From NCBI GenBank assembly GCA_026708645.1, contig JAPOUM010000026.1, positions 513 through 64,512 on the forward strand: a stretch of 64,000 bases of DNA, in the 5' to 3' direction. Source of the stretch: Acidimicrobiaceae bacterium. Lineage in GTDB: Bacteria > Actinomycetota > Acidimicrobiia > Acidimicrobiales > Aldehydirespiratoraceae. Below are positions 4,863-20,923 of this stretch, piece after piece; position 1 is the first letter of the stretch, and every line of letters begins with the position of its first letter. A program made the translations under genes and the position numbers. The notes under the pieces were generated by a model that saw nothing but the letters and a program-made list of their open reading frames with translations, was not told the DNA's origin and did not search any database.

Positions 4863-4946
4863 GGCCGTCACCACAGGGCAGGGTCACGAGCTCTGGCTCT
4901 GGTCTGGCCGCGCGGCTGCGGGTCGCGGCTTGCGGCTTGGTCTTGT
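4863..4946. repeat. Right arm of the inverted repeat (partner at 56-197)
   Basis: See the left arm. The reverse complement reads ACAAGACCAAGCCGCAAGCCGCGACCCGCAGCC...AGAGCCAGAGCTCGTGACCCTGCCCTGTGGTGACGG. Confidence 0.7.
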
Positions 4947-4949
4947 CTA

Positions 4950-6780
4950 GCTGTAGTGGTCACAGAGGTTGGGAGCAGCGTGTAGGGGGTGGGCCTCCTG
5001 TGTGAGTGTGGGGTTGCAACAGCAAACGACATGAACACAGTAGGCTTGATGCCGCATGCGAATGCAAGCCTGATGTCTGGCAGCGGGTGATGATGTTGCA
5101 GCTGGCTGGCGAACTCTAACGTGCGTTAGAGTTATGCGAGCCGACAAAATAAACTGGTATTGAATTGAGCCGCACAAGATAGCCGCACAAAATAATAGTA
5201 GATATTACTGACCACGGGTTCTCTCCTTTTTATTGACGTGATACTGTCCCGAGGCCCCATCGTCCTTGCGATCGCCCCTTCTTCGGCGACTCATGTGTCA
5301 CGTCGCTACCGATGCCGCGGAACTGTTTACGTGCGGGGCGAACTCTAAGCTTCGGCGAACTCTAGTGGTGGTTGCGAGTGGGGGCGGGGTAGATGCTGGG
5401 CACTGAGTGCCAGAGGTGGCGCGGCCCACACCACTGGGCAGCGCTTTACGCGGGTGCGCGCCTCCACATCCGCCCATCGACAGCTCGTGGGCGTAACGCC
5501 ACGACACTCGCGGCGCGCCTTTGGGAAGTAATCACTACTATTACTAACCGCCCTTCAAGGCAGGGTCGATCACAACCTGCTCGAAGCGGCCATCTGATCC
5601 CGGCGGCTGGAGGGCCTCGTCGGCTGCCTCTATCCTGAACTGCTGACAGACTTGATCGGCTCGGCTTGGCGCGACCGCAGCTTGACCGCTCTTCCCATTC
5701 AGGGGCCTGACATCTTGCGAAGCCCAGATCCGATGGCGTGCGCGCAGGCTCTGCACCGAGTAAGTAATAATTACTATTACTATATCATCAACGCTGAGGT
5801 ATTACCTTTGCCGGGCAGCCGCGGTCGAGCAGATCGCGAAGCGGAACGACAGCCGGGCGGCGACGCTGAGGCCTTGCTTCTGCCGGTCAGCCATGAAAGT
5901 AATAATTTTTATCACTTTCTACGGACAGCGCCGAATAATGGCTCTTCTCATTTGGGGTGGAGCAGGGCTGACGGCCATCCTCGCCGGGGATGTGAGATCC
6001 CCGGCGAATCTGAGCTGTGCGGCAAGCGAGATCTGGAGGATGGCGAACTCCACCGGTCGGATGCCGGCAGTGGCACTGGTCATCATGACTTATCTCTTGC
6101 AGCCACTCGGTGAAGTCCGCCGTGCACTTCAGGGATCAAGCCGCGAGACAGAGGCACAACTGCTCACTTGCATCCAACGCTGAAGTTCGACGTGAACTTC
6201 AGATCACCGCGGCCTTGCCCGATGTCGAGTTCGTTCAACTGCTCTCCAGTTATGAAGCTTTGTGCGCGACCACTGAATAGCCGCAGTCGCACTCGTGCGG
6301 TATCGTCACGCGAGCTGCCAGCAATAAACTAGATGCATGTTGCCCGCACGGGCAGGTTAGAACAATAATGAATACTATTTACCGCGGATCTACTGTTCCC
6401 TACTGACGGGCTGCTGCACCAATCCAGCATATAAGAATGATTATTACATTCTAGTTTCGCTTGCCTCAGCGGGCAAATCGGGCAAGGAGAATTCCGAGTA
6501 CAAGCCGCAATTAGTAGTAGTAATAACAAATTAATAGTAGTAATAACAGTTGTGTTCTACCAGTGCTGCCAGCCCTGTCGCCCTCGCAACGCAGCCAACG
6601 ATGCAAGGGCGCGCCACAGGCAGGCTGCCGTGCGGAGGGACTAGCCGATACAGTCATCATTGTTATTACGTTCGACAGAGCGACCTGCCCGCCCCGCCTG
6701 CTCAGCCCATCCTCGACACCTTGACCACGCACTACGGCGACCGGATCACCAGCCACAACCAATGAGAACCACCATCAGAC
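4950..6780. other. ORF-poor, motif-dense 1.8-kb tract with AT-rich AGTAAT/ATTACT islands
   Basis: No ORF longer than 153 aa and none with a recognisable family. AT islands lie at 5188-5209, 5525-5546, 5759-5787, 5895-5915, 6322-6452, 6508-6548 and 6660-6668 within GC-rich DNA. Confidence 0.6.
5111..5132. promoter_or_regulatory. Perfect 10-bp inverted repeat AACTCTAACG-TG-CGTTAGAGTT (operator-like)
   Basis: Read directly from the sequence. Related half-sites GCGAACTCTAAG (5337-5348) and GCGAACTCTAG (5354-5364) lie nearby. Confidence 0.4.
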
Positions 6781-6809
6781 ACACAAAAAATCGCACATGC
6801 CTGCCATTC

Positions 6810-7040
6810 CAGAGGCTCCCTGTGAGCCCGGCTTCTGGGCGACCTCGTCGGCTGGGCCGGCATCGACAGAGCCGCACACTCCCGACACCCCGATCATTTT
6901 CGAGGCTCTCTGTGAGCCCGGCTTCTGAGCGACACTCTCGACCGCGGCGAGCGCAACGAGATGTGGTGCTCCCGACGCTCCTAGTGAGCCCGGATTCTGA
7001 GCGACTGGCGCACTCCTCGTGAGCCCGGATTCTGTGCCCA
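6810..7040 (+). repeat. Four copies of the purB start segment GTGAGCCCGG(C/A)TTCTG
   Basis: Copies start at about 6820, 6911, 6984 and 7019 (the real purB start). The three upstream copies are in one frame (ORF 6660-7022), whose TGA overlaps the purB GTG as GTGA. Confidence 0.75.
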
Positions 7041-8449
7041 ACGTGTTGGCGAGTCGTTATGCCGGCACGGCCATGCGTGCCTTGTGGGCGCCGGAGCATC
7101 GTGTCGTGCTCGAGCGCCGCCTGTGGCTGGCGGTCCTGGAGGCGCAACGCCTGCTGGGTCTCGATGTCGAGCAGCCTGTGGCAGACGCCTACCGAGATGT
7201 GCTCGAGCAGGTCGACCTCGAGTCGATAGCCGCCCGTGAAGCAGTGACGCGCCATGACGTGAAAGCTCGCATCGACGAGTTCTGCGCGTTGGCGGGCCAT
7301 GAGGCGATCCATCTGGGCATGACCTCACGCGACGTCACCGAGAACACCGAACAGCTCCTGATCGTCGAATCTCTGAAAGTGGTCCGAGACGGTCTGGTGG
7401 CGACGCTGGCTCGTCTGGCCGACCTGGCCGCAACCCATGCCGAGACCCTGATGGTGGCGCGCACCCACAATGTCGCCGCGCAGGCCACCACCCTGGGGAA
7501 GCGCTTCGCCGACGCGGCAGCCGAAACCCTGGTCGGCTACCAGCGGATCACGGAGCTCTTGCAGCGCTATCGGTTGCGCGGCATCAAGGGCGCGGTCGGA
7601 ACACAGCAGGACCAGCTCGATCTGCTCGGGTCCGTGGAAGCCGTCGATTCCTTGGAGCGGATCGTGGCCGAGCGTCTCGGTTGGGGAGGCGTGCTCGAGG
7701 CTTCGGGCCAGGTTTATCCGCGTTCGTTGGATCTGGATGTGGTGACGGCGCTGCTGCAGGCGGTCTCCGGTGTCGGGTCGCTGGCAACGACTCTGCGGCT
7801 CATGGCCGGGCACGGGCTCGTGTCGGAAGGCTTCCGTGACGGCCAGGTCGGCTCGTCGGTCATGCCCCACAAAGTCAACGCGCGCTCCTGCGAACGCATC
7901 GCTGCGCTGCGGGCAGTGCTGAACGGGCATGTCGCAGTCGCGGCCTCGTTGGCGGGGACCCAATGGAACGAGGGCGACGTGAGCTGTTCAGCGGCTCGCC
8001 GGGTGATGCTGCCCGATGCGTTCTGCGCGGCTGACGGCATTTTGCACACCGCGCTGGGCGTGCTAGCCGAACTGCAGATCAACGAGGCCGCTCTGACATC
8101 AGAGTTCGAGCGTTATGAGCCTCTGCTGATCACGACGCGCCTGCTCGGGGCTTTGACCCGGGCAGGGATGGGCCGCGAAGCCGCCCATGCAGCGCTCTCC
8201 GGACCCGCGCGGCGGGCTGCGCAGCACGCCTGCGGCGAAGAGTCCGCCGGCTTGGAGTCGCTGATCGACGAACTTGCCGAGGATCCGCTGGTGCCGCTGG
8301 ATCGATCCGATCTGGCCGGCTTGACGGCGGACCGGCACCGCCTGGCGGGAACCGCGGCCCAGCAGGTGGAGCGTGTCGTCGCCGCGGCACATGAAGTGAC
8401 GCGCCATCATCCGCAGGCCGCGCAACAGAAAGCCGAGGTCCGCCTGTGA
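7019..8449 (+). CDS. purB: Adenylosuccinate lyase
   Basis: 476 aa. Contains the fumarate-lyase superfamily signature region GSSVMPHKVNA. The N-terminal NVLASRY and the length are typical of PurB. Confidence 0.9.
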   Translation: MSPDSVPNVLASRYAGTAMRALWAPEHRVVLERRLWLAVLEAQRLLGLDVEQPVADAYRDVLEQVDLESIAAREAVTRHDVKARIDEFCALAGHEAIHLGMTSRDVTENTEQLLIVESLKVVRDGLVATLARLADLAATHAETLMVARTHNVAAQATTLGKRFADAAAETLVGYQRITELLQRYRLRGIKGAVGTQQDQLDLLGSVEAVDSLERIVAERLGWGGVLEASGQVYPRSLDLDVVTALLQAVSGVGSLATTLRLMAGHGLVSEGFRDGQVGSSVMPHKVNARSCERIAALRAVLNGHVAVAASLAGTQWNEGDVSCSAARRVMLPDAFCAADGILHTALGVLAELQINEAALTSEFERYEPLLITTRLLGALTRAGMGREAAHAALSGPARRAAQHACGEESAGLESLIDELAEDPLVPLDRSDLAGLTADRHRLAGTAAQQVERVVAAAHEVTRHHPQAAQQKAEVRL

Positions 8450-13253: not shown

Positions 13254-13329
13254 TGGTGGTCGGGCGCGGCGTCGATCCGCGGACCTTCCGCTTTTCAGGC
13301 GGACGCTCTGCCAACTGAGCTACCCGACC
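13254..13329 (-). tRNA. tRNA-Phe (GAA), CCA encoded
   Basis: The reverse complement reads GGTCGGGTAGCTCAGTTGGCAGAGCGTCCGCCTGAAAAGCGGAAGGTCCGCGGATCGACGCCGCGCCCGACCACCA. It folds as a cloverleaf with a GAA anticodon. Confidence 0.9.
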
Positions 13330-13363
13330 GGGGTGTGCCGCCGGCTCATGAAAGCCGGCAACG

Positions 13364-13438
13364 CGGTCCTGACGGGATTTGAACCCGCGGCCTCCACCTT
13401 GACAGGGTGGCGATCACTCCAGACTGATCTACAGGACC
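13364..13438 (-). tRNA. tRNA-Asp (GTC)
   Basis: The reverse complement reads GGTCCTGTAGATCAGTCTGGAGTGATCGCCACCCTGTCAAGGTGGAGGCCGCGGGTTCAAATCCCGTCAGGACCG. Confidence 0.9.
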
Positions 13439-13493
13439 TGGCGCACGACGAGCGTGCGGAACCCGAAACGCTAGCGAACCGCCGCGCCGCTCG

Positions 13494-13566
13494 CACCCCC
13501 AACGGGATTCGAACCCGTGTTTCCGGCGTGAAAGGCCGGCGTCCTAGGCCGCTGGACGATGGGGGC
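13494..13566 (-). tRNA. tRNA-Glu (TTC)
   Basis: The reverse complement reads GCCCCCATCGTCCAGCGGCCTAGGACGCCGGCCTTTCACGCCGGAAACACGGGTTCGAATCCCGTTGGGGGTG. Confidence 0.9.
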
Positions 13567-13645: not shown

Positions 13646-14552
13646 TCAGGTCTCTGAGAAGCCGCTGCCCTCTTCGAATTGAAGAGTTTGAGTGTTCTCG
13701 GCGACGGTCTGGACGGTGTGCTCGGAGAAACCTTCAGGATTGCGGATCTCGACTTCCACCCTCACTTCGGCCTCGATGTCGGGCTGTTTCAGGAGGTGGG
13801 TGAGAACTTCTTCGCTGATCGTAGTGAACGCCTTGGTGGGCCGTTCGGGGTCGAGCTTGACCGAGCCCCGGAACGCGGTGAGCGGCGTCGGGTTCCAGAA
13901 CGACCAGACGGGCGCGGGGCTCGTCGGCCACGTCCGCTCCCCCGGCCGGCGCATAGTGGATGCTAGCGAACTCGCTTCTTGCGCGCGGCTGCTCCTTCAG
14001 CTTCGCGACGATCGGCTCTCTGACTTCGTGACGGTCGCCGGCGAGCAGGCGCTCGGCGTCGTCGCGGGCGGTGCGGGTGACGTTCTGTTGGCGGTCGAAC
14101 CAGTAGCGGTCGCGGTCGACGTAGAGGTGCGGGGCTGTGGCGGCGAGTCTGTTGAGAGCGTCGGATATCGGTCCGGGCTTGTCGCCTGCGAAGGTCGCCC
14201 CGAGCCGCACGCGACGCACCTCCAAGCCTTGATTCGTGGCGCCCACGTTGGGGGTGGCGCCCACGAATATGGCGCGGGCGACCCGTCGGGTGGCGTGCAG
14301 CGCTCCCAGGTGGGGCGTCTCGCGGTCGATCTTGAAAGACGATGATTCACGGCCGTCGACGTCGGCGTCGATCACCGGGTGCCAGTAGTCGGGGAGCCTG
14401 CCGGCTAGTTCGCTAGTGACTCGTGGATCGCCCAACGGGATCGAGCAGGGCAGGATCAGCGGGGAGCTGTCCTCGCTGCGCAGCAGCGAGTCGATTCCTG
14501 CCCGCGTCCGTCCGTCCTCGCCATGTGCTTCGACACGAACGGTTGCAAGCAT
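13646..14552 (-). pseudogene. Truncated, frameshifted C-terminal remnant of a DUF499-type ATPase (restriction-like system component)
   Basis: Two overlapping frames (13734-14552 and 13646-13954). Segments such as LYVDRDRYWFDRQQN, ADVADEPRARLVVLEP and the tail VQTVAENTQTLQFEEGSGFSE match my recollection of DUF499 C-terminal regions. The ~700-aa N-terminal part is absent. Confidence 0.5.
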
Positions 14553-14636
14553 TGCGCCAGCAGGTCGAAAGCGTCCCCCACCCGAGCCCGATTGCTAACC
14601 TCCGCCACAGCTCAAAAACTCACGCCGAACCGACTG

Positions 14637-15509
14637 CTAGAGAGCGTCCGGCGAAAACCGAAATGAGACTCTGCGCCCCTCAATGAGAGTCTCCACAAAG
14701 CGCAAACCCAGCAAAACGACATAGAAGGTATGCAGTCGCCACAATGCGTTCCATTCTGGCGACTGGGGTGACAAGTATGCAGCTGGTATCCCCAGAGATT
14801 TGGCCTGATCGTAGCCGATGGTTGCCGAGTGCATCGCATGGCTTTGTAGAGCTTTAGCAATCCGGTCGGTTTCTTCTGCGGAGGGAGGGGTTTGACGCAA
14901 ACTCAGCACTTCGGGAACCAGTTCCCTCGTTCGTCTGATGGCAGCCTTGGCAATCTGATAGATAACAGCATCGATGTCGGCCAAAAGAGCAGCGTAAAGC
15001 TCAAGTGCTACTGGGTTGTTTGTTGTGCGCTTCTCCAAGTCGTCTACGATTTCAACGATGTCTTTAGCAGGAATATAGGCTTGCCTTGTCGCCATTGGGA
15101 CTTGAGGATCGATCGGTCCGAGGGCCGATGAGTTGCTCATCACGACGGACTCCGCGGCCAGCGCAAGCAGTGTTGCGGCTGATGCAGCGGTGTCGGGAAC
15201 TATGACCCGGAAGTCTTGGCGTTCTGCGTGGCACATTCTGGCAAGCCTGACGGCTGTCTCGGCATCACCGCCTGGCGAAGTAAGCATAAGGTCAAGAGGC
15301 TTTTCCTGCTGAGCCTCACCAACAGCGTCGGCAAAAGGAGCTATGATGCTGTGGTCAATCTTGCCGTAGAACACGATCAATGAGCGACCGGTGAGTTCCT
15401 CGTATTTGCATATGCCCGCCTGACGCCCATAGCGGTCCGACTCGACGGCGCGAAAAAGAGGGCTTTGGGTGGGAGTCTCCGGCTCGGAAGGCTGTGTCTC
15501 AGAGGACAC
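14637..15509 (-). CDS. SDH-family Clp-fold serine protease (SppA/ClpP-like, PF01972-type)
   Basis: LDLMLTSPGGDAETAVRLARM...VIVPDTAASAATLLALAAESVVMSNSSALGPIDPQV is the characteristic core. GC is clearly lower than in the flanks. Confidence 0.75.
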   Translation of the reverse strand: MSSETQPSEPETPTQSPLFRAVESDRYGRQAGICKYEELTGRSLIVFYGKIDHSIIAPFADAVGEAQQEKPLDLMLTSPGGDAETAVRLARMCHAERQDFRVIVPDTAASAATLLALAAESVVMSNSSALGPIDPQVPMATRQAYIPAKDIVEIVDDLEKRTTNNPVALELYAALLADIDAVIYQIAKAAIRRTRELVPEVLSLRQTPPSAEETDRIAKALQSHAMHSATIGYDQAKSLGIPAAYLSPQSPEWNALWRLHTFYVVLLGLRFVETLIEGRRVSFRFSPDAL

Positions 15510-15699
15510 GCAGAGGCTCCGACGGAATTTTCAGCGGCTCTCGAGTTCGCCAGCTGCGCTCGTCGGGCTTGATGTTGGCGTAGCGCTCCGCGACTCGCGC
15601 GGCGGCGTCCTCGCGGGCTTTGCGGGCACGGGCGATACGGTCTTGCAGGGTCTCGTCGTCCTTGCGTCCCTCGGGGAGGAAGGGCGGCTCGTAGGTCAT
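15499..15699 (-). CDS. Small charged protein (66 aa) overlapping the start of the protease gene
   Basis: The ORF overlaps the downstream protease ORF by 11 nt, and a GGAGG-like sequence (GGGAGGATCACC) precedes its ATG. No family recognised. Confidence 0.45.
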   Translation of the reverse strand: MTYEPPFLPEGRKDDETLQDRIARARKAREDAAARVAERYANIKPDERSWRTREPLKIPSEPLRVL

Positions 15700-15726
15700 T
15701 GGCGGTGATCCTCCCTGAGATGTGGT

Positions 15727-15739
15727 GATATTTGATATC
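15727..15739. promoter_or_regulatory. Short palindrome GATAT-TTG-ATATC in the AT-richer leader of the small-ORF/protease pair
   Basis: Read directly from the sequence, ~30 bp upstream of the 15699 start. Confidence 0.3.
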
Positions 15740-15769
15740 TAGTGTATCGCAAGCTAACGACATGGCCGA

Positions 15770-16472
15770 TCAGCATTTCAGATGCAGCGCTTCCTGGCTT
15801 TGCGGGGGTAGAGCGGCGAGGAGGCTCATAGTGGGACAAGACTGCACCTGGTCGTTGTAGGCGAGTGCCTCGTCGGTCCAGCCTCTCTTCTCGCAGGTGG
15901 CGTAGAGGCGGTAGAGGAGCTCGCGGGCCGGGTCGGCGAGCCCTGGCGCGGCGCCGACCTCGCGGCTGCGGTTGCGCACCGCCAGCGGCGCCCGGTCGAT
16001 CTGATAGCGGCCGCCGTCCGCTCGTGCGGCCGTCCGCCGAGCTGCGTGCGAGCGGCATCGAAAAAGGCGTGAATGTGATGGGGTTGGAGGCGGCGCAACG
16101 CGACTTCGTCCATGTCGCGCCGGATGCGGTCCATGTCGGAGTAGCCGATGTTGTCAGCCGCGGAGCACCGGGTCTGTGATGGCAGCGGCAACCCGCTCGG
16201 GCACGTCGGTGTCGATGACCTGTTCGAGCTGGCGGCGCACCTCGGGCTGATCCCCGTAGCGGATTGCGTCGGGCAGCAGCCGTCGCGGCTCGCGGCCTGA
16301 GAGCACCTCGCCGACAACGTCGTAGACCTGCCCATCGAAAGCCTCGCGCAGCCTCTTCAGCGTGGCGCTCTCGCCCTCCAACTCGGCGATCGTCGCGGCG
16401 GCGGGGGTGGACGCCGGTCACCTGCACGTCGGGCTTCAGGTCCTCCAGCGGGATCGGCGGGTGCTCAGGCAC
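15770..16472 (-). pseudogene. Multiply frameshifted remnant of a DUF1156-type methyltransferase and/or partner helicase C-terminus
   Basis: Protein-like segments are scattered over three minus frames: AELEGESATLKRLREAFDGQVYDVVGEVL...IRYGDQPEVRRQLEQV, then RLQPHHIHAFFDAARTQLGG, then ARELLYRLYATCEKRGWTDEALAYNDQV. The last resembles DUF1156 methylase ends as I recall them. Confidence 0.35.
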
Positions 16473-16571
16473 TCGTCGAGCATACGGCGACGCCTGACGT
16501 GCTCAGGCGTGACAGCACCCACAGCGCTGTGCGTGCGAGGCCGTCCATCTTGAGAGGCAGCTGCAGCGTCC

Positions 16572-16623
16572 GGCTTGCGCTGGGCGATGTTGCCGCTGGC
16601 TTGCGCTGGGCGATGTTGCCGCG
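16572..16623. repeat. Tandem 26-bp repeat x2 (plus a partial third)
   Basis: GGCTTGCGCTGGGCGATGTTGCCGC(T/G) lies at 16572-16597 and 16598-16623, followed by GCTTGCGTT. It is ~90 bp upstream of the GPP34-P450 gene. Confidence 0.8.
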
Positions 16624-16708
16624 GCTTGCGTTATGATAACCTTGTGCCAAACATTGCGAACCGCACTGATTGCGTTGCTCTTGACGGCAGAGCCCGAAAG
16701 GATATTCG

Positions 16709-18772
16709 ATGACGATTATTGAGCGTGAAGTTGCAGATGGGAGCGTTGATCCTGGCAGACCTCTGACGCTGGTTGATGAGCTGGTGTTGACTCTTCTCAA
16801 TGAGGAATCCGGCTATTTCCGTCAGGTGCCGATCTGGAACCTCAACTGCGCCGTTATCGGCGGGGCTCTGGCTGAGTTGTCGTTGCGGGGCCGCATCGAC
16901 ACTGATCTCGACTCGTTGATCTTCGTGGACGGCGCACCTACCGGCGACCCGGCGCTTGATCGGCTGCTTGAAAAGATCGGAGCTTCGACCGGGCAGCACA
17001 ACGCTCAATATTGGATCGAGAAGCTTGTGCCGGAGGCCGAGCCCATTATCGATATGACCCTTGAGCGTCTGACCGAGATGAACATTCTGCGGCATCACGA
17101 AGGCGAATTTTGGTCGCTGTCGAAGGTCGTCTGGGGCGCAGCAGACGGATCCGCTGACGGTGCCGACGATCAGGCCAGTAACGAGTTCGTCAAGACTCGT
17201 ATCAGTAGAGCTATCTTCACCGATGAGATCCCGTCGCCTGTGGACGTGATCATCGTTTGTATCACCGATGTCTGTGATGTGCTGCGTTTCATCTTTGAGC
17301 TTGACGAGGCAGCTGAGCAGAGGGTGGTCGAAATCTGCAAGATGGATCTGATCGGGCGTGCCATTGCCGACGCGGTTCGCGAGAATTTCGTCACTGCGCA
17401 AGTTATTCCCACCGCGATCACCAAGCAGATTCCCTCTGTGAAGCTGATGGACATGATTCGCAGTCCAAACGCTCGCAACGGGAATATGCCGGCGTTCTTC
17501 GCTGAATGTTACAAAAAATACGGCCCTGTCTTCAGGCTCAAGCAGCCGTTTCAGCAGCCTTTTACCTGCGTAGCCGGTCCCGAAGTCAATGCGTGGGTTC
17601 ACCGCCACGGTCGATTGTATCTGTCATCAAGGCATGCTCTTGATGATTTCCTAAAAGCTGTCGGTGCAAGAAATTTTGTGAACACGCTTGACGGTGTTGA
17701 TCACTTCAAGTGTCGCAAGTCCTTTCAACAGTCTTTTTCGCGCTCCAGATTAGTGGAGCGATCTGATGAAATGCTCAATTATGGTCTCGACAGTATCTCT
17801 AGTCTGGAAATCGGTAGTGAGATTCCGTTAGTAGAACTTGGATATCGGGTATCCAACTCGCAGATGTCGCCGTTGTTGCTTGGTGTTGAAACTCAGGACG
17901 TCTTTGATGATGTATCTAAATTTATATTGCGAATTCTAATGACGGATTTTGCTGGCTACCTTCCCAAGCTCATGAATCATACTCCTGGAATGCGGCGCCG
18001 CAAGAAACTCTTCAATGAGCTTGTGGATCAGGTCTTTGCTAGTCATACAGCTGCTCAACGAGCCGGTTGCCCCAGAGATTACATTGATGATCTGGTGAGC
18101 TTCAATGCCAGCGACCCTCAGCTGATGCCCCAAGCCAACATGCGCTTTGCAATCATCAACGCCCTGATAAATTCCATGTACACTGGGCAGCAGATGTCGA
18201 CCTTAATGTACTTACTGCTGTCAAACCCGGAAGTTTATCAGCAAGTCACTGCCGAGGCTGATGCAGTATTCGGTGAAGGCGGCAAAGTTGATTTTGAAGT
18301 TTTCACTGGCCCGGCAACTGATGTAACTCAACGGGTAGTCACTGAAAATTTGCGCTTATATCCTACAATATTCGGATCATTCCGCCATGCGATAAACAAC
18401 TGCTTGATCGGTGGATATCAAATGTCGGTGGGAGAAAGACTTTGGATTCTGTCAGCAGTTACTCACTATCTAGACGATCAATTTCCAGAGCCAATGAAGT
18501 TTGACATTGACAGGTACAAGTCTCCGCGTAATGAACATCGCGGCACCGGATATGCCCCGTTTGGACTTGATACTCATACCTGTCTTGGCCAACGTTTAGT
18601 TTCTCTGCAATTGGCAATCAACATTCTGATGTTGTCACACTACTTTGAAATGGAACTGGTAAACAAGGATTCCGATATCAAGATGACTGTTTTGCCTTTG
18701 CCGGGCTTGGCAGCGAGAAGGAAAATCAAAGCCCGCTTCGTCGCGCGCCGCCACGAAGTAACCAAGCCCTGA
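16709..18772 (+). CDS. GPP34/GOLPH3-family domain fused to a cytochrome P450 domain
   Basis: The N-terminal ~210 aa (LTLVDELVLTLLNEESGYF...GGALAELSLRGRID) look like bacterial GPP34 proteins. The C-terminal ~470 aa have ExxR (ENLRLYP) and a Cys-ligand loop PFGLDTHTCLGQRL. GC is far lower than the genome average. Confidence 0.7.
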   Translation: MTIIEREVADGSVDPGRPLTLVDELVLTLLNEESGYFRQVPIWNLNCAVIGGALAELSLRGRIDTDLDSLIFVDGAPTGDPALDRLLEKIGASTGQHNAQYWIEKLVPEAEPIIDMTLERLTEMNILRHHEGEFWSLSKVVWGAADGSADGADDQASNEFVKTRISRAIFTDEIPSPVDVIIVCITDVCDVLRFIFELDEAAEQRVVEICKMDLIGRAIADAVRENFVTAQVIPTAITKQIPSVKLMDMIRSPNARNGNMPAFFAECYKKYGPVFRLKQPFQQPFTCVAGPEVNAWVHRHGRLYLSSRHALDDFLKAVGARNFVNTLDGVDHFKCRKSFQQSFSRSRLVERSDEMLNYGLDSISSLEIGSEIPLVELGYRVSNSQMSPLLLGVETQDVFDDVSKFILRILMTDFAGYLPKLMNHTPGMRRRKKLFNELVDQVFASHTAAQRAGCPRDYIDDLVSFNASDPQLMPQANMRFAIINALINSMYTGQQMSTLMYLLLSNPEVYQQVTAEADAVFGEGGKVDFEVFTGPATDVTQRVVTENLRLYPTIFGSFRHAINNCLIGGYQMSVGERLWILSAVTHYLDDQFPEPMKFDIDRYKSPRNEHRGTGYAPFGLDTHTCLGQRLVSLQLAINILMLSHYFEMELVNKDSDIKMTVLPLPGLAARRKIKARFVARRHEVTKP

Positions 18773-18784
18773 AGTCCGCCAGTA

Positions 18785-19282
18785 TCAAGACAGCTCATCG
18801 CTGTCACCCTCTGGAAGAGTCTCGGCTGCGGTCTCCACAAGCTGGTCGAGTATCCCGCCGAGCCACTCATAAAGCATGTAGCGAGCCGTGTCGTGATCGC
18901 TGTCGCCCAAGTCGGCCGGATCAAAAGACGCTGAGCCCACCTCAAGTGTGTTCCCCAAATACAGCCGCAGGCTGTTGAGGGTCTGCAGCCAGGCAGAAAC
19001 CGCGTCAGCAGCGATCACGCCGGCCGCCAATCCGGCCTCGACGACGTCGATGGCCTCCAGGCGGTGCTTCAGCAGAGGCGCAGCGGCCATCTCCCAGAAC
19101 TCGTCGGAAGCTTTCTCGTCGGCGATGTGCACAGGCGGCTGGAAACGCAGCATGGAAGCGTCACTGCCTTCGGTGAGCAGATCACGGAACTGTTGCAGCA
19201 CCGTCGCCAGCCCGGAGCGTTCATCGGCGTGCAAGTTCACGGCGATGCCGTCGGGTCCGTGTCGGAACATGCGTCGTGCCAT
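18785..19282 (-). CDS. DUF2017 domain protein (ClpS-associated)
   Basis: 165 aa, immediately downstream of clpS as in many actinobacteria. The acidic pattern is typical of the family. Confidence 0.65.
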   Translation of the reverse strand: MARRMFRHGPDGIAVNLHADERSGLATVLQQFRDLLTEGSDASMLRFQPPVHIADEKASDEFWEMAAAPLLKHRLEAIDVVEAGLAAGVIAADAVSAWLQTLNSLRLYLGNTLEVGSASFDPADLGDSDHDTARYMLYEWLGGILDQLVETAAETLPEGDSDELS

Positions 19283-19299: not shown

Positions 19300-19620
19300 T
19301 CAGTCCTGCTCGAGCACAGCCCAGAGGCCGTGCTCGTGGAGCCGGTAAGCGTCGAATTCGGCCTTCTCGAGCGGCCCCGACGCCACCACGGCCCTGCCCT
19401 CGGTGTGAACCTGCATCATCAGCCGGTGCGCCTTGGCTGCCGAATAGCCGAACAATTTGCGGAACACGTAGACCACATACGACATCAAGTTGACCGGGTC
19501 ATCGAGAACGATCACCTTCCAGGGCAGATCAGGCCGCCGGTCGGTCTCGTCCACCGGATCCTTCACAGGAGCGGTGACCGGCGACGCCGAAGCGAGCACC
19601 GCAAAACAGAGTTCGGTCAT
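19300..19620 (-). CDS. clpS: ATP-dependent Clp protease adaptor ClpS
   Basis: [27 protein letters not shown]...[12 protein letters not shown] is the ClpS core. Its ATG overlaps the ctaA stop as ATGA. Confidence 0.9.
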
Positions 19621-20702
19621 GTCGTGCCAATCAGTGGTCTGAAGTCAGAGGGCCTGCTGTCCGGGCGACCGCTGCGCGGTGACGCCCCAGCGTAGGCCGC
19701 CTTGACTATCTGAATCCAAGTGATCGAAGCCAGAGTAACATGAATACCCACTAAAAGCACAGGCACACCCAGAAAATACTGCGCATAACCGACAGCCGCC
19801 TGCACGATCAGCAGTTCGGCGATTCTGCGCATGCGGACTTGTTCGGACGACCCTGACGCCCGCATCCGCCACCAGGCCCAGATCACCAGCACCAGCAGAG
19901 CGATCGCGATGACGCTGTGGACTCGCACCACTTCTCGCACCAGCAGCGGCAGCCGCTCGGCTCGGCTGTCTCCCGCGTGCGGTCCCGCTCCTGTGACCAG
20001 AGTGCCGCTGACCAGCAGCACCGCAGCGACGGTCATCACAGCCCACACCAGCAGCCGAGTGACGCCGTCGGTGCCGCCTGTGCCGTCGGTGCCGCCTGTG
20101 CCGTCGGTGTCGCCTGTGCCAGCGGTGCCGCCTGTATCCCCCGCGTCGTCTTGGTCGTCTTCGCCGCCTCGTCGCTCTGAGCGGCTCGCGTCGTCACCGG
20201 CGAGTTCGACAGCCCGGCCAGGGTCGCCGGGTTCGAAATCGCGGGCTTTCACGTCGAGCAGGGACGCATTCCAAAGCAGCACCATCGACAACAAGAAGTG
20301 CCCCATCGTGAAACGGGGATCGAGCTCCGACAGCACCAGCAGAGCCCCCAGCCCGACTTGGGCCAGCACACCGGCCACCAGACCCAGCGACAACCATGCC
20401 AGATCGGCCCGACGCGGCCTGCGCCGCCAAGCGCCGAGCACGGCGCCGAGCACGGCGACGGCCACGACCCCGGTGAACAGCCGGTTCACGAACTCGACCA
20501 GAGCGTGGAACTCCAAATCCGCCAAGAAGCGGTCCTGTGAGCAGGCGGGCCAGTCCTCGCACCCCAGCCCCGAACCGGTGAGCCGCACGGACACGCCGGT
20601 CACCACGATCGCCGCCAGCGCCCACAAGGCGAACCGAGTGAGCCGTGCATAGGCGGTCGGAGCCACGAGCCGATGGTAGGGCCCGGTCGGCTCGCCGAGC
20701 AC
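19617..20702 (-). CDS. ctaA: Haem A synthase (COX15/CtaA family)
   Basis: [17 protein letters not shown] and multiple TM helices with conserved His. The start is trimmed to the GTG at 20702, because the longest ORF (to 20921) has an Arg/Ser-rich non-protein-like N-terminus and would abut ctaB. Confidence 0.8.
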
Positions 20703-20923
20703 CTGAGCGCTCCACGGACGGCGACTGCCGCTGGCGAGTAGTCGCCTCTGCGATGCTCTCTTGGACGAGCGCCTGTCGGCGTGCAGCCGCGACCCGACGA
20801 TCGCAACACGATCTGACGATCTGGACGATCTGCTGGTGTGGCCCGTCGGCGCGGCGCCGTTCGATCGTCGCCCCCCGGCAGTCAGATGACCAGATGACCG
20901 GTGTGATCTTCTAGCCTGCAAGC

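Follow-up and report, generated by a model that had tools for sequence, protein, structure and literature searches.

The 64,000-nucleotide stretch analysed here, hereafter the window, comes from an Acidimicrobiaceae bacterium (assembly GCA_026708645.1, contig JAPOUM010000026.1, positions 513 to 64,512 of the forward strand) and carries a genuine single gene whose product joins an N-terminal GOLPH3-fold domain, named GPP34, through a short flexible linker to a complete heme-thiolate cytochrome P450 domain. From the make-up of this fusion protein and from the genes that surround its relatives, we posit, with a probability of about one in two, that it is a membrane-docked P450 acting on a sterol-type lipid within a mobile sterol-tailoring cassette. 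The P450 would oxidise or desaturate a sterol-type membrane lipid, alongside a horizontally mobile set made up of a sterol methyltransferase (SMT), a KshA-like Rieske oxygenase and a flavin adenine dinucleotide (FAD) oxidase or isomerase of the amine-oxidase fold, to which an ERG4/ERG24-type sterol reductase would sometimes be added; a resistance-nodulation-division (RND) transporter bearing a sterol-sensing domain (SSD), together with LolA-like or LppX-like lipid carriers, would see to trafficking. The GPP34 domain could serve as a peripheral membrane-docking or lipid-handing module, replacing the N-terminal anchor of eukaryotic P450s and holding the enzyme at the cytoplasmic membrane, the presumed site of its substrate. 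The window copy itself is a derived, fast-evolving, low-GC orphan that sits in its ancestral slot and has lost its partners.

Two domains and the genes around them

That one open reading frame (ORF) of 687 aa carries both a GPP34/GOLPH3 and a P450 domain had been claimed in an earlier note on this DNA, made from the sequence alone, and both Pfam profiles match the protein (P0001) above their cut-offs: PF05719 with E=6e-27 (95.4 bits against 29.1, profile positions 1-200 of 201) and PF00067 with E=2.6e-32 (112.6 bits against 22.8). The GPP34 assignment, which the note had given to residues 1-210, is supported for aa 21-225 over the full profile. A family profile matches the GOLPH3 structure 3KN1 with E=3.2e-12, and in an AlphaFold2 (AF2) model of the domain (predicted local distance difference test, pLDDT, 85.2; predicted template-modelling score, pTM, 0.83) the fold is all-helical with one hairpin, the projecting β-hairpin being kept at aa 127-137 (strands 127-130 and 134-137). 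When this model was compared with the PDB using Foldseek, the sole matches at E<=0.001 were GOLPH3 and Vps74 (TM 0.65-0.68). The full-length AF2 model reaches a pLDDT of 84 and a pTM of 0.75, with a disordered linker at aa 230-235.

The window protein is a 100% match to a database entry named 'cytochrome P450 [Acidimicrobiaceae bacterium]'; it is also called on contig JAPOTP010000023.1 of the metagenome-assembled genome GCA_026709125.1, and an identical protein occurs on 11 contigs from three assembly sources (ENA, NCBI and Logan). In a run search by sampled words, 99-100% of those of the fusion-gene DNA were found in three runs labelled 'sponge metagenome', and none of the RNA-seq runs in this search holds the window's fusion gene.

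The earlier note had called the fusion unusual; it belongs instead to a large, conserved and already published family. In a breadth scan of one genome per GTDB species, with relatives counted as stretches, at least 565 stretches in species-representative genomes of about ten phyla encode relatives. For detailed loci we took the best 80 tblastn hits, which align over essentially the whole fusion protein and come from Acidimicrobiia, Dehalococcoidia and other Chloroflexota, Latescibacterota, Nitrospirales, Alpha- and Gammaproteobacteria, Thermodesulfobacteriota, Opitutia, Spirochaetia and Acidobacteriota, many of them as closed long-read chromosomes. The 120 best database relatives are 663-739 aa long and 49-77% identical, all with the same two Pfam domains; across the best matches both domains align end to end, and the window protein sits on a long branch. 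Ferreira et al. (Microbiome 2025, PMC11706023) distinguish GPP34_S, the domain alone, from the long form GPP34_L; 656 of their 663 long forms are GPP34+P450 fusions, and the long forms are monophyletic. The architecture is thus known, and the window adds no new one. What is new is the replacement of three of the four lipid-pocket residues of GOLPH3, the contrast between a clade-wide I-helix and a near-private Asp in the P450 domain, and the sterol/lipid gene neighbourhood, from which we infer a mechanism.

The heme-contact determinants of the P450 domain are conserved, and the ExxR motif (ENLR, aa 546-549) and Cys ligand (FGLDTHTCLG, aa 618-627) lie where the earlier note had placed them. E546, R549, R602 and C625 are invariant in an alignment of 26 family sequences (A1), and further conserved heme-contact residues are the HxxxR of helix C (H332, R336), H623 and G627. 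By sequence, the PDB matches of the domain are taxadiene hydroxylase, CYP51, CYP46A1 and BM3; by fold, the nearest solved P450s (Foldseek, TMt 0.75-0.83) are CYP184A1 with oleate, Methylococcus capsulatus CYP51 with lanosterol, CYP97, CYP102 and CYP46A1. We considered and rejected CYP51 sterol 14-alpha-demethylase as an identity for the domain, as structural alignments give only 19-20% identity and the I-helix is not of the AGQHTS type. Read from its sequence, the fusion is a predicted cytoplasmic, two-domain protein without a signal peptide, and its heme site looks competent.

Two features set this P450 apart, and whilst the earlier note had grouped them as a hint of atypical chemistry, and both are present, their status differs. 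The I-helix lacks the acid-alcohol pair, as that note observed, and this is a trait of the whole clade: about 88 of 92 proteins share the consensus [IVL]AS[VMA]YLGD, in which one residue is deleted, Tyr stands where the acid would be and Leu or Val takes the place of Thr. The window's NSMYTGQ departs further than the clade consensus ASxYLGD, and the canonical AG[LI][DE]T is retained in fusion proteins that are more distant. The Asp in place of the second Gly of the Cys loop is, on the other hand, nearly private. The family consensus is [FY]GLGTH[TR]CLG, the change occurs in 2 of 92 proteins, and the 77%-identical sister P0002 keeps the Gly; the Cys-pocket signature FxxGxRxCxG has no match in the window protein, where Asp621 stands at the Gly position. 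The I-helix, with Tyr for the acid and Leu or Val for Thr, could mean that the standard proton relay of hydroxylation is not used, and that the enzyme works for instance by desaturation or with substrate-assisted O2 activation.

The suggestion of a sterol-type substrate comes from the company that the fusion gene keeps. We surveyed all ORFs of at least 100 aa within 10 kb of it at 87 loci, clustering them, removing shadow ORFs and annotating representatives with Pfam. The commonest partner is a Rieske+KshA_C protein (56 of the 87 loci), followed by an RND transporter with MMPL/Sterol-sensing/Patched matches, or SSD RND (53), a FAD enzyme of the Amino_oxidase family (41) and a sterol methyltransferase recognised by Sterol_MT_C (37); at least one of these four is found in 74 loci, and each of them directly adjoins the fusion gene in 20-25. 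Less frequent are short-chain dehydrogenases/reductases (15 loci), AcrB-type RND, LolA_like, LppX/LprAFG-like and major facilitator superfamily proteins (11 loci each), sulfatases (10) and an ERG4/ERG24 sterol reductase (9; Pfam 3e-71). A sterol-specific marker, that is SMT or ERG4/24, is present in 39 loci, and an RND pump of some kind in 63. The nine reductase loci are L024, L026, L036, L054, L065, L067, L069, L070 and L074; seven of them also hold the methyltransferase, which L054 and L070 lack, and L036 has two methyltransferases and two Rieske oxygenases.

The partners themselves are in keeping with lipid work. KshA is the best PDB match of the Rieske partner (1e-22), the FAD partner resembles LkcE and the fatty-acid double-bond isomerase 2B9W, and the RND partner, with matches to HAE3 (3e-65), HpnN (3e-35) and MMPL/Sterol-sensing/Patched, is best described as HAE3/HpnN-like. 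Among the partner methyltransferases, 34 of 41 carry ESTCHAP/EATCHAP, which we take to be a hallmark of SMTs. An SMT is also found 3.4 kb away from a P450 that stands alone and is related to the domain. Besides the P450 fusions, PMC11706023 reports rarer ones in which GPP34 is joined to a Rieske protein or to an ABC-ATPase, kinds of protein that also neighbour the fusion gene. The putative ligand- or lipid-presenting role that the earlier note had imagined for GPP34 would agree with the sterol/lipid gene context.

Several considerations weigh against a sterol-tailoring P450, however. The sterol link would be one of guilt by association; the neighbour counts describe one clade, because the loci are the best tblastn hits, and cassettes spread by transfer are not independent observations. 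Methyltransferases of the Sterol_MT_C type and KshA-like oxygenases could act on other lipids, and a family member with a canonical I-helix (L009) sits with acyl-CoA genes instead. Across the 87 loci, no oxidosqualene cyclase, ferredoxin or reductase is conserved near the fusion gene, and a scan of the same neighbourhoods for ferredoxin-like small ORFs returned one real ferredoxin, the rest being noise. As for the window, tblastn finds no MMPL, Amino_oxidase, Rieske or SMT gene anywhere in its 64 kb, and Gly621Asp may impair heme binding. Finally, the loss of the GOLPH3 pocket for phosphatidylinositol 4-phosphate (PI4P), set out below, is inferred from alignment and not from a superposed structure, and R62, R164, R205 and R217, nearly invariant in the fusion family, could form another anionic-lipid site.

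In the literature we found no prior description of GPP34 with sterol, nor of a sponge-symbiont Rieske/P450/SMT cluster. The supplements of Brown et al. 2023 give SMT clusters without listed P450, GPP34, Rieske or MMPL genes; because those clusters are oxidosqualene-cyclase/CYP51 de novo clusters, they provide no direct link to a tested SMT. Perhaps the fusion is even the signature enzyme of a mobile cassette with which symbionts of many phyla would remodel host, dietary or own sterol at the membrane, in the side chain or in the nucleus, and traffic the product, the GOLPH3-like domain being a sterol or membrane dock and not a PI4P reader; we put forward this fuller version tentatively, as a possibility that we would not yet bet on.

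A derived copy in its ancestral slot

In the closest relatives the order of the slot is ilvD, a stand-alone P450, tRNA-Phe/Asp/Glu, the fusion gene, its partner genes, DUF2017-ClpS-CtaA and CtaB-COX1; depending on the locus, the genes between the fusion and DUF2017 encode an MMPL/Sterol-sensing/Patched protein, an Amino_oxidase-fold FAD enzyme, a Rieske+KshA_C oxygenase or a Sterol_MT_C methyltransferase. The stand-alone P450 occupies the same place in 9 Acidimicrobiia loci, and the window copy, with a native GC of 0.654, is 88% identical to that of the syntenic locus L001. Nothing remains of the cassette proposed here (SMT, Rieske, FAD, ERG4/24 or SSD-RND within 10 kb) in the window, and the loss looks stepwise: four partners in L002, only MMPL in L001, none in the window. 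The Hma/protease block that lies between the tRNAs and the fusion gene (Table 1) is absent from the syntenic L001, L002 and L005, and an Rfam scan of the window returned tRNAs only.

The foreign composition noted earlier is borne out: the fusion gene has a GC of 0.504 (0.557 at third codon positions, GC3) and its P450 part 0.473, against 0.660 for the other 62 kb of the window, and its deficit of -0.15 relative to its flanks ranks in the top two of 92 genes. Together with its sisters P0002 and P0003, P0001 forms a long branch with 44-52% identity to all others; typical fusion members are 58-75% identical even across phyla. Against L001, flanking proteins are 87-91% identical (CtaA 71%) and the fusion protein 77%; against L002 the flanking proteins are 62-91% identical, the fusion 53% and its P450 half 48%, whilst the fusion proteins of L002 and L005 are 87% identical to one another. 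The low GC could have come with a foreign allele that replaced the original one, its donor being unsampled, or it could have arisen by drift in place, and we favour neither. The fusion gene still occupies the ancestral slot, and its closest copies are those of Acidimicrobiia (50-52% vs 44-47%); the databases contain no low-GC donor closer than 53% identity.

Relative to L001, dN/dS is 0.33 for the fusion and 0.43 for its P450 half, compared with 0.05-0.17 for the neighbours at comparable dS; from this value, purifying selection still acts, and the low-GC, fast-evolving state predates the split between the window and L001. With its partners lost, its GC low, its evolution faster and its Gly621 exchanged for Asp, the window copy is therefore under relaxed constraint or re-purposed.

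Could it then be a decaying relic, left behind under relaxed selection after partner loss and perhaps no longer binding heme? We regard this as unlikely, though less so than any other alternative, and it would be compatible with any family-level function. The stepwise loss of partners from L002 through L001 to the window fits such decay, as do the raised dN/dS (at most 0.17 for neighbours), the GC deficit, the degraded defence island inserted next door and the changes at conserved sites, Gly621Asp included: at sites at least 90% conserved, the window protein deviates at 14 of 137, against a median of 3. Yet the 687-codon frame is intact both in the window genome and in L001, dN/dS is well under 1, 123 of the 137 conserved sites are unchanged, none of the heme-contact motifs has been lost, nor has the Cys ligand, and the low-GC state is older than the split from L001. 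Orphan copies in general deviate more than clustered ones (median 7 vs 3), but this is a trend only (p=0.09, n=7) and not significant.

Table 1. Features of the fusion gene and its surroundings in the window (positions count from the first letter of the stretch).
Feature	Position	Strand	Remarks
Stand-alone class-I-like P450, 438 aa	11871..13187	-	Pfam p450; only conserved cassette neighbour left in the window
tRNA-Phe/Asp/Glu cluster	13254..13566	-	ARAGORN; conserved landmark directly upstream of the fusion gene in L001, L002 and L005
Genome-specific insertion between tRNAs and fusion gene	13734..16381	-	PADLOC, NCBIfam, Pfam; Hma remnants and a protease gene
HmaC AAA+ fragment	13734-14552	-	Profile positions 370-574 of 941
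SDH-family Clp-fold serine protease gene	14637-15509	-	GC 0.55; interrupts the Hma remnants
HmaB, last 55 aa	15770-15976	-	Hma anti-phage remnant
HmaA helicase fragments	16154-16378 and 15826-16335	-	Hma anti-phage remnant
26-bp tandem repeat	16571..16630	.	Tandem Repeats Finder (TRF): 2.4 copies, 94% matches, score 111
Shine-Dalgarno-like GAAAGGA	16696..16702	+	6 nt before the ATG; read from the sequence
GPP34-P450 fusion ORF (P0001)	16709..18772	+	ORF list; ATG to stop, 687 aa, frame intact
GPP34/GOLPH3-like domain, aa 21-225	16769..17383	+	Pfam PF05719; keeps the β-hairpin; by alignment, no basic PI4P pocket
Cytochrome P450 domain, aa 257-658	17477..18682	+	Pfam PF00067; E-class, lipid/sterol-type by fold
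I-helix stretch NSMYTGQQMST, aa 488-498	18170..18202	+	Tyr at acid position, one-residue deletion, no conserved Thr
ExxR motif ENLR, E546-R549	18344..18355	+	Forms the E-R-R triad with R602
Cys-ligand loop FGLDTHTCLG, aa 618-627, Cys625	18560..18589	+	Asp621 replaces a near-invariant Gly
DUF2017 gene	18785..19282	-	Pfam 6e-23; begins 12 bp past the fusion stop; marks the partner-gene site

The tandem repeat upstream of the gene exists as described and ends 78 bp ahead of the ATG; the feature start of 16572 given earlier takes it in, the ORF itself beginning at 16709. In L001 the repeat is reduced to about 1.5 diverged copies of a GGCTTGCG[CT]T-containing unit, without 43 nt found in the window, whilst CGAAAGGA is kept at the Shine-Dalgarno-like site; the 160 bp upstream (16404-16560) are 85% identical between the two. 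Scans for promoters and terminators around the fusion gene gave nothing above shuffles on the + strand and no sigma-70-like match. We treat the repeat as a local duplication; nothing ties it to a function.

A few further observations concern the locus and its relatives. In L005 the tRNA cluster and the fusion gene are separated by a 694-aa ORF of GC 0.70 (5813-7897); we considered this ORF as a diverged fusion paralogue and rejected this, as it has no similarity to the fusion protein and no Pfam or NCBIfam match. Within the window, a CtaA/COX15-like ORF (19617-20921, - strand) carries a Gly/Thr/Asp-rich low-complexity insert and measures 434 aa, against 304-324 aa in relatives; gene callers start further in, giving 348-360 aa. 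Upstream of purB, about 2 kb (~4900-7040) of GC 0.57 has no convincing ORF and no Rfam match, and contains 5-7 copies of an AT-rich AGTAATAGTAGTAATA-like motif and four GTGAGCCCGGNTTCTGNGC copies at 6805-7037.

Amongst related loci, tandem paralogous GPP34-P450 genes stand side by side in L004 (5795-10043) and also in L017, L059 and L067, and L029 and L073 are two separate fusion copies in one Dehalococcoidia chromosome. The canonical-I-helix gene of L009 (530-15012) occurs with two acyl-CoA synthetase and two CoA-transferase genes in a block flanked by two inverted 779-aa Tn5-like transposase genes, which looks like a composite transposon. The alphaproteobacterial copy in L086 (1435-3456), 37% identical to the window protein, has the Cys loop YGLDAHKCAG, the only other Gly-to-Asp change of the 92, and the largest GC deficit of all (0.494 vs 0.658 in its flanks). 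That low GC and Gly-to-Asp are shared by the window and this unrelated copy is a coincidence worth noting (n=2).

Which lipid, and what role for the GPP34 domain?

The neighbourhood can also be read without sterols. The fusion could be a membrane P450 for another hydrophobic substrate, say a fatty acid, a hopanoid, a carotenoid or a natural product of sponge or symbiont, coupled to an efflux pump that serves detoxification or export. RND pumps are the commonest kind of neighbour (63 of 87 loci) and the RND partner is best classed as HAE3/HpnN-like; the best Foldseek match of the P450 domain is the fatty-acid-binding CYP184A1, with CYP97 and CYP102 close; the likeness of the FAD partner to LkcE and to the fatty-acid isomerase 2B9W points the same way, and L009 occurs with acyl-CoA synthetases, P0140 with Mla genes. 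What makes us judge this rather improbable is that four independent sterol-associated Pfam families (Sterol_MT_C, ERG4_ERG24, KshA_C and Sterol-sensing/Patched) co-localise with the fusion gene, and that SMT or ERG4/24 is found in 39 of the 87 loci.

The pocket of the GPP34 domain bears on a different proposal. In GOLPH3, PI4P is bound by W81, R90, R171 and R174: neither the double mutant W81A/R90A nor R171A/R174A still binds it (PMC2806290). We located the equivalents by pairwise and profile alignment to GOLPH3 and counted them over 92 fusion proteins. The Trp is mostly kept (W43 in the window protein, W in 80 of 92), whilst R90 corresponds to I50 (V/I/A in 86, R in 1), R171 to E111 (E/D in 89) and R174 to I114 (I/V in 81), and the segment corresponding to GOLPH3 residues 159-170 is missing from the alignment of the fusion-protein domain. 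Because the equivalents of R90, R171 and R174 are replaced and this segment is missing, three of the four PI4P-pocket residues appear to be replaced family-wide, and the basic pocket, as far as alignment can tell, is not conserved. The N-terminus ahead of the domain is short and variable; no hydrophobic signal-like N-terminal segment was found in the window protein, such segments were flagged in only 3 of 92 relatives, and neither a signal peptide nor a Tat motif is conserved amongst the 92. Hydrophobicity is highest over aa 174-198, where the GPP34 fold has a charged core helix and not a membrane span.

Ferreira et al. (PMC11706023) have proposed that GPP34 proteins, the P450 fusion included, are secreted effectors: by binding host PI4P on the phagosome they would keep it from maturing, allowing escape from digestion by sponge cells. 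In their data sets the family occurs in sponge and coral symbionts only and is absent from free-living relatives, and Aplysina aerophoba metatranscriptomes show expression of GPP34_L. Two results obtained here also speak for the model: the GPP34 domain is truly homologous to GOLPH3, and the window gene is present in sponge metagenomes. The text of the paper makes no mention of sterols, steroid genes, MMPL transporters or signal peptides. Nonetheless, we find this model doubtful in the extreme for the fusion: it is weakened because three of the four PI4P-binding positions appear acidic or hydrophobic in about 90% of the 92 proteins with a neighbouring segment deleted, because no secretion signal is conserved and the monoderm and diderm host phyla share no secretion system, because a P450 requires heme and an electron supply, and because the conserved neighbours are sterol/lipid enzymes and RND pumps and not secretion genes. 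The two ideas could yet meet, if sterol remodelling itself averts digestion.

A fused redox partner, as in P450 BM3 or the CYP51-ferredoxin, is an analogy drawn in the discussion of the same paper, and one to which we give hardly any credence: the domain matches GOLPH3/Vps74 only and is all-helical with one hairpin; no flavin or Fe-S motif is present in it, and just two of its Cys are conserved. That a sequencing or assembly error fused two separate genes into this ORF, an objection the earlier note had raised against itself, is refuted and its chance practically nil: the identical ORF comes from three independent assembly sources on 11 contigs, the full-length model folds with a pTM of 0.75, and the reading fails because the same continuous architecture is found in the 120 best database relatives, in 80 of 80 genome loci and in hundreds of genomes, closed long-read chromosomes included.

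Should a sterol-tailoring, membrane-docked P450 prove correct, the implications would reach beyond one gene. The only published functional idea for a symbiosis-specific family rests on a pocket that appears not to be conserved in the bacterial domain, whilst conserved sterol-type enzymes and lipid pumps across about ten phyla turn the protein into a testable hypothesis with substrates and a gene set. This bears on the debate over the share of bacterial symbionts in the side-chain-alkylated sterols of demosponges, which are read as the earliest animal biomarkers (PMC10070321); part of the unusual demosponge sterols, 'sponge biomarkers' included, could be made or finished by bacteria with the cassette. 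For P450 enzymology, the family offers a natural group of large size in which a non-canonical I-helix is conserved and the fused partner, of the GOLPH3 fold, is not a redox domain.

Comparison with known systems

Bacterial lipid RND systems (HpnN, BstA, and MmpL with LppX/LprG) share with the clusters their transporter matches and their LolA-like or LppX-like companions, although the RND matches all lie below equivalog cut-offs, that to BstA is weak (2e-10), and the transporter gene is missing from the window.

The yeast module for the sterol side chain comprises ERG6 (the SMT), ERG5 (a P450 C-22 desaturase) and ERG4 (a C-24(28) reductase). The same three kinds of enzyme stand side by side in 7 of the 87 loci, SMT and P450 together in 37, and in two more the reductase accompanies the fusion gene with no methyltransferase present. 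The bacterial clusters go beyond the yeast module with a Rieske oxygenase, a FAD enzyme and an RND pump; all of these partners are missing from the window. The module would serve as an analogy only, as no sequence evidence makes the fusion P450 an orthologue of ERG5/CYP61/CYP710.

With E-class P450s of lipids and sterols (CYP51, including the M. capsulatus CYP51-ferredoxin, CYP46A1, CYP102/BM3, CYP184A1 and CYP97) the fusion shares the fold, ExxR, E-R-R triad, HxxxR and Cys ligand at only 14-22% identity, and its I-helix reads AS-x-YLGD where theirs reads AGx[DE]T or, in CYP51, AGQHTS. Unlike in these comparators, its N-terminal partner is neither a redox domain nor a transmembrane anchor.

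That partner shares its fold, its β-hairpin and the W81-equivalent Trp with GOLPH3/Vps74 (3KN1, 9QPQ, 2ZIH), whilst R90, R171 and R174 have become Ile/Val, Glu and Ile, and the segment of residues 159-170 is gone. Unlike these eukaryotic Golgi effectors of PI4P, it is joined to an enzyme, in a bacterial host without a Golgi.

Closest of all is GPP34_L itself (PMC11706023). The window copy differs by its long branch, its low GC, Gly621Asp and its lost neighbours; in domain order, in its length of about 675 aa and as the protein of an Acidimicrobiia sponge symbiont, it is the same.

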